Assembly (NCBI GenBank): GCA_000002435.2
Contig: CM018792.1
DNA from: Giardia intestinalis
Lineage: Eukaryota
Direction: 5' to 3' (one strand)
Length of the DNA stretch: 64,000 nt
Translations under genes and position numbers: made by a program
Part shown: in pieces, positions 2,115 through 5,933 of the stretch
Numbering within the stretch: position 1 is the stretch's first letter
Layout of the letters: each line of letters opens with the position of its first letter
Notes under the pieces: generated by a model
What the model saw: the letters and a program-made list of their open reading frames with translations, nothing else
Told to the model about the DNA's origin: nothing
The model's database searches: none

Positions 2115-4016
2115 TCACGCCTTCCCCCTGCACAGGAACCACCAGCAGAGGAAGCCCACGAGGCCCCCCACGACAGCGACCACGGCGACGGCAATGCCCG
2201 CGATGGCCCCCGTGCGGAGGCCGCTCCTATTACTGCCAGAGGACACACAGGAGGCCCCAGCATCATCAGGGCTGTACCCATCGTTGCACACACAGACAGA
2301 GTTATCATCAGTGGAGTTGCTGGGACAGCCATCCACGCATGACTTCCTCCCAGGGCTCACCTTCCCACTACTACATGCCTCGCACATGTCATCCCTGTTG
2401 GGCTTCTTACTACTGTCACAGGAGGTACAGACAGCGGGGGCCATACCACCATCAGACAGAGCTGCTGGGGCTGTACACTGGGAGCAGCCCTCTACCCCCA
2501 CATATGCCTTAGCAGTATTACCAGTGCCTGTCAGTGTGCCAAGGGGGTTACTACAAGCCAACACAGACTGATCAGTGTTGGATGCACCAGGCACTACGAA
2601 GTACCTATTGTTGGCTGCTTCTGTGCAGATCCCAGTATTACCTGCTGTCTTGCACATGAAGCTACCAGGAGCCTTCTGAGTGCTATAACAGCCACCCATG
2701 TATAGGAAGTAGTTGTTGGTGCACTGTGTACATACACCATTAGCACAAGTATTCCCAGCCTTTTGAGCCTCACTAGCACAGAGACCATCTATAGGAGCTT
2801 GTGAACTATCTCCACAATAGGAACAGTAGTGCTTTGTGGTGCCCTGATCATCTATTACGATGGCATCACAAGAGCCAGCTGTCCCCCCACAAGCCGTGGG
2901 GTCCTCGCAGGTCTTCTCTGTGCATGTATAGTTGTCTGAGGTTCCAGCGGGCTTCCTGTTAGGCTTGCACTTTGTGCACTTGAGAGGTCCTGTAGACTCC
3001 TTTGTGCACTCGGCACACCCATCGATGCCCCCCTGTGCATTATCACAAGCAACGCACTCACCAGTAGGACCATTGCCTTTCATGAAGAACCCAGGCTTGC
3101 ATGTATCACACTTATCATTGCCAGTTTGAGTGCAGGTGGCACAGTTAGCACCTGGACAAGCGGTGCATGTAACCGTACCACTACCACTACTGTAGTATCC
3201 ATCGAGGCACTCCGAGCAGGTCGGCGGTGTCGCCGAGTCCTTGGTACACTTCTTACACCCGGCAATGCCCTGGTAATTTGGATCGGCTCCAGCTGAAACG
3301 GTACTGCATAAAACACATGTTTTGTCCTCCTTCATAAATAGGGCCTCGTCAGCGCCTTTACATCCAGCGTAGTCTTTTGTCACGCACGTCGAGGTCCCAT
3401 CAAGGGCCGTCCTGGGGATCTTACTGTTATCACAAGCTGTGCACTTCGGCTTCTTGGTAGTCGAATCAACCTCACACTGGGTACATGCTTGATCTATCGT
3501 GTTGCAAGGAAGGCACTTCCCCGACTCCGGGTCAGCATAAGTGTTTCCAGTGCATCCATTATTATTCACGCATGACTTGTCAGTCTTCAGGTACTTCCCC
3601 TCTGGACACGATGTGCAATGATTCGGACCACTTCCATCGCAGGTCAGACAGGACTGATCACACTTCTCACATGCATCACCCTTCTTAATGTATCCATCTT
3701 GGCAGACAGTGCATGTGGCCGGTCCGCTAGTGCCCGTGTGGGAGCATTCTGAGCATCCAGCGACTCCCATGACCCCGTTTCTATCTATAGTATCGGAGCA
3801 CAAGATGCACTCACTACCCTTCTCTGATGGTGTAACTGGGTTCTTGAACAGGCCGTTAGCTGTATTACAAGCAGTGCACAGTCCTCCCTCAGCCTTTGTG
3901 CATATCTCACTGCCAGGGTGTGCATCCTTGTTGTAGCACCCGCCCATGAAGAGGAGTCTCATACTATCACTATCACCCCCACACCACATAGCACTATCAC
4001 TATCACTGTACAGCAT
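2115..4016 (-). CDS. vsp: VSP-like unit 2, lacking a signal peptide (possible pseudogene/cassette)
   Basis: The 633-aa product has the CRGKA tail, a C-terminal TM segment and CXXC/GGCY motifs. It is more than 99% identical at DNA level to unit 3 over about 1.7 kb. The ATG at 4014-4016 is only 12 nt downstream of unit 3's stop codon. Confidence 0.8.
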   Translation of the reverse strand: MLYSDSDSAMWCGGDSDSMRLLFMGGCYNKDAHPGSEICTKAEGGLCTACNTANGLFKNPVTPSEKGSECILCSDTIDRNGVMGVAGCSECSHTGTSGPATCTVCQDGYIKKGDACEKCDQSCLTCDGSGPNHCTSCPEGKYLKTDKSCVNNNGCTGNTYADPESGKCLPCNTIDQACTQCEVDSTTKKPKCTACDNSKIPRTALDGTSTCVTKDYAGCKGADEALFMKEDKTCVLCSTVSAGADPNYQGIAGCKKCTKDSATPPTCSECLDGYYSSGSGTVTCTACPGANCATCTQTGNDKCDTCKPGFFMKGNGPTGECVACDNAQGGIDGCAECTKESTGPLKCTKCKPNRKPAGTSDNYTCTEKTCEDPTACGGTAGSCDAIVIDDQGTTKHYCSYCGDSSQAPIDGLCASEAQKAGNTCANGVCTQCTNNYFLYMGGCYSTQKAPGSFMCKTAGNTGICTEAANNRYFVVPGASNTDQSVLACSNPLGTLTGTGNTAKAYVGVEGCSQCTAPAALSDGGMAPAVCTSCDSSKKPNRDDMCEACSSGKVSPGRKSCVDGCPSNSTDDNSVCVCNDGYSPDDAGASCVSSGSNRSGLRTGAIAGIAVAVVAVVGGLVGFLCWWFLCRGKA

Positions 4017-4021
4017 TCACT
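4015..4021 (-). terminator. Putative Giardia polyadenylation signal AGTGAAT (AGTRAAY) for unit 3, 8 nt after its stop; it overlaps the ATG of unit 2
   Basis: The minus-strand sequence reads TGA cttaggt AGTGAATG. The same arrangement recurs at 226-232, 2101-2107, 5932-5938 and 7763-7769. Confidence 0.55.
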
Positions 4022-4028
4022 ACCTAAG

Positions 4029-5933
4029 TCACGCCTTCCCCCTGCACAGGAACCACCAGCAGAGGAAGCCCACGAGGCCCCCCACGACAGCGACCACGGC
4101 GACGGCAATGCCCGCGATGGCCCCCGTGCTGAGGCCGCTCCTATTACTGCCAGAGGACACACAGGAGGCCCCAGCATCATCAGGGCTGTACCCATCGTTG
4201 CACACACAGACAGAGTTATCATCAGTGGAGTTGCTGGGACAGCCATCCACGCATGACTTCCTCCCAGGGCTCACCTTCCCACTACTACATGCCTCGCACA
4301 TGTCATCCCTGTTGGGCTTCTTACTACTGTCACAGGAGGTACAGACAGCGGGGGCCATACCACCATCAGACAGAGCTGCTGGGGCTGTACACTGGGAGCA
4401 GCCCTCTACCCCCACATATGCCTTAGCAGTATTACCAGTGCCTGTCAGTGTGCCAAGGGGGTTACTACAAGCCAACACAGACTGATCAGTGTTGGATGCA
4501 CCAGGCACTACGAAGTACCTATTGTTGGCTGCTTCTGTGCAGATCCCAGTATTACCTGCTGTCTTGCACATGAAGCTACCAGGAGCCTTCTGAGTGCTAT
4601 AACAGCCACCCATGTATAGGAAGTAGTTGTTGGTGCACTGTGTACATACACCATTAGCACAAGTATTCCCAGCCTTTTGAGCCTCACTAGCACAGAGACC
4701 ATCTATAGGAGCTTGTGAACTATCTCCACAATAGGAACAGTAGTGCTTTGTGGTGCCCTGATCATCTATTACGATGGCATCACAAGAGCCAGCTGTCCCC
4801 CCACAAGCCGTGGGGTCCTCGCAGGTCTTCTCTGTGCATGTATAGTTGTCTGAGGTTCCAGCGGGCTTCCTGTTAGGCTTGCACTTTGTGCACTTGAGAG
4901 GTCCTGTAGACTCCTTTGTGCACTCGGCACACCCATCGATGCCCCCCTGTGCATTATCACAAGCAACGCACTCACCAGTAGGACCATTGCCTTTCATGAA
5001 GAACCCAGGCTTGCATGTATCACACTTATCATTGCCAGTTTGAGTGCAGGTGGCACAGTTAGCACCTGGACAAGCGGTGCATGTAACCGTACCACTACCA
5101 CTACTGTAGTATCCATCGAGGCACTCCGAGCAGGTCGGCGGTGTCGCCGAGTCCTTGGTACACTTCTTACACCCGGCAATGCCCTGGTCATTTGGATCGG
5201 CTCCAGCTGAAACGGTACTGCATAAAACACATGTTTTGTCCTCCTTCATAAATAGGGCCTCGTCAGCGCCTTTACATCCAGCGTAGTCTTTTGTCACGCA
5301 CGTCGAGGTCCCATCAAGGGCCGTCCTGGGGATCTTACTGTTATCACAAGCTGTGCACTTCGGCTTCTTGGTAGTCGAATCAACCTCACACTGGGTACAT
5401 GCTTGATCTATCGTGTTGCAAGGAAGGCACTTCCCCGACTCCGGGTCAGCATAAGTGTTTCCAGTGCATCCATTATTATTCACGCATGACTTGTCAGTCT
5501 TCAGGTACTTCCCCTCTGGGCACGATGTACAATGATTCTGACCACTTCCATCGCAGGTCAGACAGGACGGATCACACTGCTTGCATTCGTTATTCTCTTT
5601 ATAGTACCCTGCTTGGCACTCAGTGCACGTGGCAGGTCCTGGACTATTAGTTGGTTCCGTGCACTTGAGGCAGTTAGCCACCCCCGTATATCCATCTGCT
5701 CCCTTGGTATCCCAGCAGAGGATGCACTCCCTTCCCTTCTCTGATGGTGTAGCAGGGTTCTTGAACAGGCCGTTAGCTGTATTACACTCAGTGCACACTC
5801 CATTACTGGCTGCTGTGCATATCTCACTGCCAGGGTGTGCATCCTTGTTGTAGCACCCGCCCATGAAGAGGAGTCTCATACTATCACTATCACCCCCACA
5901 CCACATAGCACTATCACTATCACTGTACAGCAT
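4029..5933 (-). CDS. vsp: VSP-like unit 3, lacking a signal peptide (possible pseudogene/cassette)
   Basis: The 634-aa product has the CRGKA tail. It is identical to unit 2 except for a divergent stretch of roughly 110 aa near the N-terminus (SEICTAASNGVCTECNTANG...ECQAGYYKENNECKQCDPSCLTCDGSG). Confidence 0.8.
   Translation of the reverse strand: MLYSDSDSAMWCGGDSDSMRLLFMGGCYNKDAHPGSEICTAASNGVCTECNTANGLFKNPATPSEKGRECILCWDTKGADGYTGVANCLKCTEPTNSPGPATCTECQAGYYKENNECKQCDPSCLTCDGSGQNHCTSCPEGKYLKTDKSCVNNNGCTGNTYADPESGKCLPCNTIDQACTQCEVDSTTKKPKCTACDNSKIPRTALDGTSTCVTKDYAGCKGADEALFMKEDKTCVLCSTVSAGADPNDQGIAGCKKCTKDSATPPTCSECLDGYYSSGSGTVTCTACPGANCATCTQTGNDKCDTCKPGFFMKGNGPTGECVACDNAQGGIDGCAECTKESTGPLKCTKCKPNRKPAGTSDNYTCTEKTCEDPTACGGTAGSCDAIVIDDQGTTKHYCSYCGDSSQAPIDGLCASEAQKAGNTCANGVCTQCTNNYFLYMGGCYSTQKAPGSFMCKTAGNTGICTEAANNRYFVVPGASNTDQSVLACSNPLGTLTGTGNTAKAYVGVEGCSQCTAPAALSDGGMAPAVCTSCDSSKKPNRDDMCEACSSGKVSPGRKSCVDGCPSNSTDDNSVCVCNDGYSPDDAGASCVSSGSNRSGLSTGAIAGIAVAVVAVVGGLVGFLCWWFLCRGKA

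Follow-up and report, generated by a model that had tools for sequence, protein, structure and literature searches.

A Linear Array of Pseudo-VSP Genes in Giardia intestinalis WB, with One Unit Probably Formed by Unequal Crossover

Introduction

At the left end of a 64,000-nt stretch of Giardia intestinalis DNA (GenBank assembly GCA_000002435.2, contig CM018792.1; hereafter the window, with positions counted from its first letter), long and almost perfect direct repeats follow one another. What do the repeated units encode, how did they become so alike, and can their number in the assembly be trusted? With a probability of about 0.8, positions 1–10074 of the minus strand constitute a head-to-tail "linear array" of pseudogenes for variant-specific surface proteins (VSPs), pseudo-VSP genes for short, of G. 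intestinalis WB; this figure also takes in the proposed origin of one member, unit 2, by one recent unequal crossover. The feature is already known, being a catalogued part of the reference genome. The additions made here are modest and comprise the exact hybrid structure of unit 2, a recurrent breakpoint at the residues 'EICT', and a start-less head unit shared with the DH genome, to which a discrepancy of two repeat periods between the 2007 and the current WB assemblies can likely be added.

Units of the Array

The array comprises at least six VSP units, all on the minus strand, arranged head to tail and in one common reading frame, with a start-to-start spacing of 1,875–1,917 nt. The spacers between a stop codon and the next open reading frame (ORF) are very short, with 12 nt in front of units 1–3 and 76 nt in the case of unit 4. 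A preliminary description of this DNA, made from the letters alone, had not identified the units as VSP genes. The features are as follows.

1–239, minus strand: unit 0 (partial), the 5' part of a further pseudo-VSP leaving the window at its left edge; the ORF begins near 200; junction of the same type as that of unit 4, with no start codon and with in-frame stops upstream of the 'EICT' homology point.
240–2114, minus strand: unit 1, pseudo-VSP; ORF 240–2102, 620 amino acids (aa), CRGKA tail.
2103–2114, minus strand: 12-nt spacer CTTAGGTAGTGA, repeated at 4017–4028 and 5934–5945.
2115–4028, minus strand: unit 2, pseudo-VSP; ORF 2115–4016, 633 aa; hybrid of the unit 1 5' part and the unit 3 3' part, putative crossover interval 2542–3275.
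2216, minus strand: single-base difference 1; unit 2 CGC (Arg), likewise unit 4 at 6047; unit 3 AGC (Ser) at 4130.
3275, minus strand: single-base difference 2; unit 2 TAC (Tyr), likewise unit 1 at 1361; unit 3 GAC (Asp) at 5189.
3606–3896, minus strand: divergent N-proximal patch, 291 nt; unit 2 (of the unit 1 type) versus unit 3 (5520–5813).
4029–5945, minus strand: unit 3, pseudo-VSP; ORF 4029–5933, 634 aa; private N-proximal patch 5520–5813; middle common to units 1 and 2.
5946–7776, minus strand: unit 4, pseudo-VSP; ORF 5946–7700; no ATG; deeper 5' truncation, at 'EICT'.
7777–9963, minus strand: unit 5, the head unit; full-length VSP body with the leader-like FLLIPLFVVSALA and no ATG; long ORF 7777–10074.

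The assignment to the VSP family rests on both ends of the proteins and on what lies between them. All five complete units finish with ...GFLCWWF[IL]CRGKA directly before the stop, that is, with the C-terminal transmembrane helix and CRGKA tail of the family, and the segment TGCAGGGGGAAGGCGTGA occurs five times at 0 mismatches, where 0.06 occurrences are expected by chance; a single match with 3 mismatches lies outside the array, at 22623. Each unit is rich in cysteine (69–92 Cys and 24–34 CXXC motifs per unit) and carries GGCY, and the profile of the Giardia variant-specific surface protein, Pfam PF03302, matches with E=3e-43 (unit 2) and 6e-44. The top database relatives of the units are, without exception, Giardia VSPs. 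Their arrangement is that of a vsp linear array, in which two or more adjacent units stand head to tail with short spacers and the downstream members lack an initiator.

Junctions and Expression Signals

The polyadenylation signal of Giardia has the consensus AGTRAAY. In the array, AGTGAAT starts 7 nt after the TGA stop of every unit, and the sequence directly after each TGA reads CTTAGGTAGTGAATGCTGTACA.... In units 1–3, the 'ATG' at the beginning of the ORF overlaps the last base of the preceding unit's poly(A) signal, and because of this overlap the N-terminus MLYSDSDSAMWCGGDSDSMRLL is to be regarded as translated 3' untranslated region (3'UTR) together with the GTGATAGT-rich spacer. These three units begin with MLYSDSDSAMWCGGDS..., the translated 3'UTR and spacer in question, and homology to VSPs sets in only at "FMGGCY", which in an intact VSP like P0003 (MFQLIPLFVASALMA...) is residue ~90. 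In units 4 and 0 the cut lies deeper, at "EICT"; they have in-frame stops upstream and no ATG. The downstream units are VSP bodies minus the leader and ~90–130 N-terminal residues, each fused directly behind the preceding unit's stop codon and poly(A) signal.

The head of the array has retained more of its 5' end. Unit 5 reads CACAGCCTTT at the place where VSP genes carry the initiator YAATGTT, and there is no ATG before its first GGCY. Within 9925–9975, CACAGCC replaces the CAATG initiator and start, and the VSP-like leader FLLIPLFVVSALA is kept. The same holds for the head at the syntenic DH locus (L012, ~6540–6600), which is likewise start-less; since WB and DH share this defect, the head lost its ATG before the AI/AII split.

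An expressible VSP gene is recognized by an ATG followed by a signal peptide, and by a TAATGTT or CAATGTT initiator with an extended upstream non-coding region; neither combination was found in the array. YAATGTT has 0 occurrences on the minus strand of 1–10400, and no unit shows a signal peptide after a genuine ATG, as judged by eye against MFQLIPLFVASALMA in the intact homologues. Because initiator element, genuine start codon and signal peptide are all absent, the units are presumably silent. Stop-codon read-through joining the in-frame units was considered and rejected, as it would have to pass three in-frame stops per junction, two of them within the spacer beyond the TGA. A scan for sigma-70 promoters and terminators gave matches at the level of shuffled sequence and is irrelevant in a eukaryote.

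Origin of Unit 2

Repeats were mapped by offset scanning. Tandem Repeats Finder, whose longest period of 500 is smaller than the unit length, reported no repeat. The longest exact direct repeat in 1–10100 has 1,588 nt, where 50 shuffles gave 12.6 on average and at most 15. It belongs to a series of exact tracts at the offset 1914, namely 628–2215 = 2542–4129 (the 1,588 nt), 2217–3274 = 4131–5188, and 3276–3605 = 5190–5519, which together cover 2,978 nt with two mismatches. The identity is continuous across two unit boundaries at this constant offset.

Compared unit by unit, units 2 and 3 share a tract of 1,491 nt (2115–3605) with 2 differences and a 5' junction tract of 132 nt (3897–4028) with 0 differences; over the whole unit the identity is 94.6%. 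They differ only in the 291-nt patch at 3606–3896, with a net length difference of 3 nt, and in two single bases. The preliminary description had reported near-identity over ~1.7 kb; the near-identity stands, and the length has to be reduced to 1,491 + 132 nt, or ~1.62 kb, split by the N-proximal patch. It had also named a single coding difference in the shared part, Leu versus Arg at 4129/2215. The triplets cgg and ctg on which this was based are those of the plus strand, whereas the genes lie on the opposite one, where the codons read CGC and AGC, and the exchange is Arg/Ser at 2216/4130. Moreover, a second difference exists outside the patch, TAC (Tyr) at 3275 versus GAC (Asp) at 5189. Unit 1 has in common with both units 2 and 3 the 1,064 nt of the middle (628–1691) and the 132-nt junction, in good agreement with the ~1.2 kb given earlier, and with unit 2 alone its identity extends over 1,487 nt of the unit (628–2114).

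From these relations the composition of unit 2 follows directly. Joining the 5' part of unit 1 to the 3' part of unit 3, with any join within 3275–2542, reproduces unit 2 with one mismatch, at 2216. Such a composition is the expected signature of a single unequal crossover, and the unbroken identity through two junctions at a fixed offset can be rationalized in the same way, because one out-of-register exchange would produce both. It is proposed that one very recent out-of-register homologous crossover (or an equivalent repair event) took place between unit 1 and unit 3 on different chromatids, at a site inside the 1,064-nt middle that the two already had in common. The product would carry the units in the order 3-[1/3 hybrid]-1, and the array would have become longer by one period of 1,914 nt.

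As regards timing, the 1,588 nt compared between units 1 and 2 contain 0 differences and the 1,623 nt compared between units 2 and 3 contain 2, whereas the unique flanks of WB (AI) and DH (AII) differ by 2–4%. Because the units are near-identical against this background, the event that gave unit 2 would be far more recent than the AI/AII split, or else homogenisation continues. The suggestion of recent duplication or ongoing homogenisation made in the preliminary description is thus borne out by the hybrid nature of unit 2, with its one mismatch, and by the 0 and 2 differences over ~1.6 kb.

Reliability of the Assembly and Alternative Explanations

Several observations weigh against this interpretation. 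Units 1–3 do carry an ATG-initiated ORF, and the presumed silence of the units is deduced from missing signals. Unit 2 could be an extra copy made by the assembler, as it has no private sequence at k≤251, and the 2007 annotation of WB gives a different structure at the array locus. In addition, the sequence expected from a crossover would also result from two long conversion tracts that jointly cover all of unit 2.

The most concrete of these points is the 2007 annotation. XP_001705183.1 equals unit 3 residues 1–379 except for a Tyr at position 249, and residues 14–256 of XP_001705182.1 equal unit 1 residues 378–620. The odd tail of the first protein and the odd head of the second are alternative-frame translations either side of one run of six G residues (G6). 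Together the two 2007 proteins therefore spell one unit, made up of the unit 3 5' end and the unit 1 3' end with a length error of 1 nt. The shared middle of units 1–3 contains a G6 homopolymer (968–973, 2882–2887 and 4796–4801), and it is exactly there that the 2007 annotation is apparently off by 1 nt. At the Tyr/Asp site, the 2007 hybrid unit links Tyr to the unit 3 patch. It may be a collapse of units 3-2-1, in which Tyr is the two-to-one majority base, or equally the reciprocal deletion product of the crossover.

It is improbable, but one of the two better surviving alternatives, that the true number of 1,914-nt periods differs from that in the window, either because unit 2 was made by the assembler or polisher or because further unit-2-like copies were collapsed; the near-identity would then partly reflect the building of a consensus across paralogues. 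Up to k=251, no k-mer is private to unit 2, which is exactly the unit 1 5' part plus the unit 3 3' part; k-mers of its own first appear at k=501, linking base 2216 to sequence beyond ~2499. The single unit spelled by XP_001705183.1 and XP_001705182.1, with its Tyr249 and its 1-nt shift at G6, means that two assemblies of the same strain disagree by two periods. Furthermore, XP_001703902.1 (645 aa, matching VSP213) is a mosaic missing from the window, with the order units 1/2 N-terminus, vsp1269-like middle, unit 4 block and units 2/4 C-terminus; it represents either an old chimera or a unit beyond the left edge of the window. Arrays of this kind are also known to end contigs (Adam et al. 2010, BMC Genomics 11:424, PMC2996952). 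On the other hand, the genes neighbouring the array match the PacBio-based reference, whose reads should span 5.7 kb, and both single-base differences are consistently placed, each being common to a specific other unit. Since collapse of such repeats is a commoner error of assemblers than expansion, the version with three units is to be preferred to that with one.

The same discrepancy between the assemblies would arise if the homologues of the polyploid cell carried both crossover products, the three-unit allele of the window and the one-unit allele of 2007, an explanation to which we give an equally low probability. The 2007 unit is the exact reciprocal deletion product of the crossover proposed for unit 2, allelic variation in repeat number has been described for vspA6 and vspC5 (Adam et al. 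2010, PMC2996952), and a higher allelic variation has been reported around VSPs (Xu et al. 2020, Sci Data 7:38). Collapse by a Sanger assembler, however, leads to the very same hybrid, and a collapsed consensus is consistent with Tyr, the majority base at the Tyr/Asp site.

Least probable is gene conversion without a change in copy number, in which units 1, 2 and 3 would be old and overwritten by long tracts from their neighbours: short exchange tracts are evident in the array (9452–9644 versus 3715–3907, and 154–375 versus 7691–7912) and recombination among vsp genes is documented in the literature, but at least two tracts of ~1.5 kb would be required, covering all of unit 2 and both junctions with no private base left, where one crossover explains the same data and the identity runs unbroken across unit boundaries at a fixed offset.

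A single unequal crossover thus remains the preferred origin of unit 2. The assembly hazard to which the preliminary description had drawn attention is supported in that k-mers up to k=251 do not set unit 2 apart and the 2007 WB annotation shows a different structure. Along these lines, the products of the unit ORFs were sought in a 15-billion-protein collection, where at least 74 short-read WB assemblies carry a neighbouring gene; an exact product was found for none of them, a result weakened by the differing choice of start codons by gene callers, and the closest cluster representatives to unit 2 do not exceed 91% identity. Look-ups of the 2007 proteins P0001, P0005 and P0003 likewise gave no exact product. 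For users of the WB reference a note of caution is appropriate. No part of a Giardia assembly is less reliable than its VSP pseudogene arrays; at this locus, two assemblies of one strain seem to disagree by two periods of 1.9 kb, and short reads are not uniquely placeable in unit 2.

Mosaic Structure of the Array

The mosaic was mapped by an alignment of the six units scored in 60-nt windows, complemented by exact runs. Along the units, identity switches sharply between 100% and 40–80%. Units 1 and 2 agree in the 5' junction and the N-proximal patch, and in the middle all three of units 1–3 coincide. Over the last ~384 nt and the junction that follows, units 2, 3 and 4 do not differ (1983–2498 = 3897–4412 = 5814–6329, except base 4130), so that the 3' 384 nt of unit 3 (4029–4412) are common to unit 4 and the 3' end of unit 4 (5946–6329) equals those of units 2 and 3. 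The middle of unit 4 is diverged, with ~40–78% identity to units 1–3. Units 1 and 5 have in common the last 136 nt and the 3' flank (154–375 = 7691–7912); within this tract, 154–239 and 7691–7776 represent the identical junctions of units 0 and 4. Finally, ~190 nt of the patch of units 1 and 2 (3715–3907) are ~98% identical to unit 5 (9452–9644) and constitute a short exchange tract. As a general pattern, the 3' part of each unit matches its upstream neighbour and the 5' part its downstream neighbour.

Short internal patches of this kind need conversion-like exchange besides crossover. Earlier exchanges similar to that proposed for unit 2, together with short conversion tracts, would account for the 3' ends of units 3 and 4, the tails of units 1 and 5, and the ~190-nt tract linking unit 5 to units 1 and 2. 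The units may, accordingly to this scheme, have served repeatedly as substrates of recombination.

The sequence GAGATATGCACA ('EICT') is a recurrent breakpoint, located at ~9633–9644 in unit 5, ~7705–7716 in unit 4 and ~168–179 in unit 0. Units 4 and 0 are truncated on their 5' side at this point; in unit 5, it is here that orthology between WB and DH ends and that the tract in common with units 1 and 2 begins. Unit 5 was considered as the ancestral donor of this tract; the idea was dropped, as the WB/DH orthology ends where the tract begins.

Coding Constraint and Exchange with Intact VSP Genes

Are the units decaying? Among the diverged units, the ratio of non-synonymous to synonymous substitution rates (dN/dS) is 0.19–0.32, with dS saturated; 97–100% of the cysteines are conserved, and the coding frame contains 0 in-frame stops, compared with 10–73 in the other frames. 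The units are not visibly decaying.

Blocks of the array recur in intact genes. KAE8304460.1, a complete VSP of 689 aa encoded on the same 2.76-Mb contig, contains a block of 194 aa identical to units 2 and 3; by length and Cys counts it matches the catalogue entry vsp1269/VSP139. KAE8304683.1, an intact VSP of 748 aa on the 4.02-Mb contig (matching VSP149), contains a block of 277 aa identical to unit 5 residues 412–688 (7780–8900). The array sequences are thus of protein grade and, judged at the level of protein identity, appear to be exchanged with expressible genes.

At the DH locus, orthology with WB stops at the GAGATATGCACA (EICT) point, and beyond it the DH array is only ~70–77% identical. 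There the head is followed by one truncated unit and, after that, by a separate complete VSP, with the caveat that the DH assembly could itself be collapsed. The contents beyond 'EICT' would thus have been wholly replaced between WB and DH, yet they are open and under constraint at the protein level. It is conceivable, but rather doubtful at present, that the array is a working archive and not a graveyard, and that silent arrays and expressible VSPs exchange segments, continuously rebuilding the repertoire of G. intestinalis. If true, a recombinational layer would be added to epigenetic switching.

Comparison with Known Systems

Linear arrays were described by Adam et al. (2010, PMC2996952), according to whom more than half of the WB vsp sequences reside in them. 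Their spacers average 60 bp, the downstream members have no initiator, members can share long stretches of 100% identity, and the arrays typically terminate contigs; the arrays were proposed to be either recombination cassettes or discarded genes. Pseudo-VSP arrays as a class were also described in the PacBio reference paper (Xu et al. 2020, Sci Data 7:38), and a 2022 preprint describes the same VSP classes. The present array resembles these in its head-to-tail units, very short spacers, CRGKA tails, 100%-identical stretches and broken assemblies, as well as in downstream members devoid of initiator, proper start and signal peptide. There is no difference in kind, although units 1–3 are closer to each other (0–2 differences per ~1.5 kb) than the example of 2010 (94%), and the head is start-less here, where many array heads keep the initiator.

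In Giardia muris, pseudo-VSP arrays are untranscribed and, on phylogenetic evidence, exchange with intact VSPs (Xu et al. 2020, Microb Genom 6:mgen000402). They resemble the present array as VSP pseudogenes without signal peptides; they differ in belonging to another species, in their GCRGK tail, and in being almost all adjacent to telomeres. More distant parallels are the VSG pseudogene arrays of T. brucei, Borrelia vls, Anaplasma msp2 and Pneumocystis MSG, all of them arrayed, promoter-less and 5'-truncated open frames. Such silent-cassette archives have conserved ends in common with expressed genes, and the array studied here shares long identical blocks with intact VSPs. In Giardia, by contrast, an epigenetic or post-transcriptional mechanism is assumed for VSP switching (Adam et al. 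2010, PMC2996952), and no dedicated expression site is known; a role of the array as donor is only putative, what is seen being a static sharing of blocks (194 aa and 277 aa). The locus illustrates clearly how an archive of surface antigens may be shuffled by unequal crossover and short conversion tracts. It fits the published, still unproven idea of arrays feeding new variants to expressed VSP genes and opens no new question.

Flanking Regions and Chromosomal Location

The genes to the right of the array are exact matches to the WB C6 proteins GL50803_0016869 (13436–18604), GL50803_0011152 and GL50803_004323, which sit on a 2,761,001-bp contig of WB C6. Positions 12925–28604 of the window agree to 99.97–100% with short-read assemblies from many sequencing runs, and the window is accordingly the WB reference or a sequence that cannot be told apart from it. 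The array contig is probably chromosome 4 of WB, since related catalogue entries map there: the 256-aa protein identical to the 243 C-terminal residues of unit 1 matches VSP134 (GL50803_111873, a member of a linear array on chromosome 4) in length, Cys and CXXC counts. No secure match was obtained for VSP133 of the 2010 catalogue, whose Cys counts fit the first 426 residues of unit 4, not unit 3.

Between the array and these genes lies one further feature.

9700–12900, no strand assigned: GC-rich, gene-poor tract upstream of the head unit, 58–69% GC.

This tract is single-copy in the window and lies inside a WB/DH alignment block of 96.4% overall identity. Its long ORFs have no Pfam match, and no exact product is on record for its 442-aa ORF. 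Rfam detected no RNA family in the whole window, and because of this the tract is not ribosomal DNA. All nine short-read contigs of GL50803_0016869 that were inspected end 0.43–0.61 kb upstream of the gene (12925–13008), at the right edge of the tract. These breaks at 12.93–13.0 kb were rejected as proof of a repeat hazard, as they lie ~2.9 kb from the array; all that they show is that array and flank are never connected by short reads. Possible reasons for the contig ends at this tract are GC-dependent loss of coverage, allelic variation, or a further copy at another genomic site.

Two minor observations concern the remainder of the window. At 55188–58199, a 1,003-aa ORF corresponds to a product annotated on matching contigs with protein-kinase and ankyrin-repeat Pfam domains, and represents a NEK-type kinase unrelated to the array; this kinase family is typical of Giardia. 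Furthermore, DH carries a ~3.1-kb insertion with a reverse-transcriptase (RVT_1) ORF (L012, 21254–24372) at the position corresponding to 24667–24686; the window lacks this insertion. The blocks flanking the DH insertion overlap by 20 nt, resembling the target-site duplication of a retrotransposon insertion.

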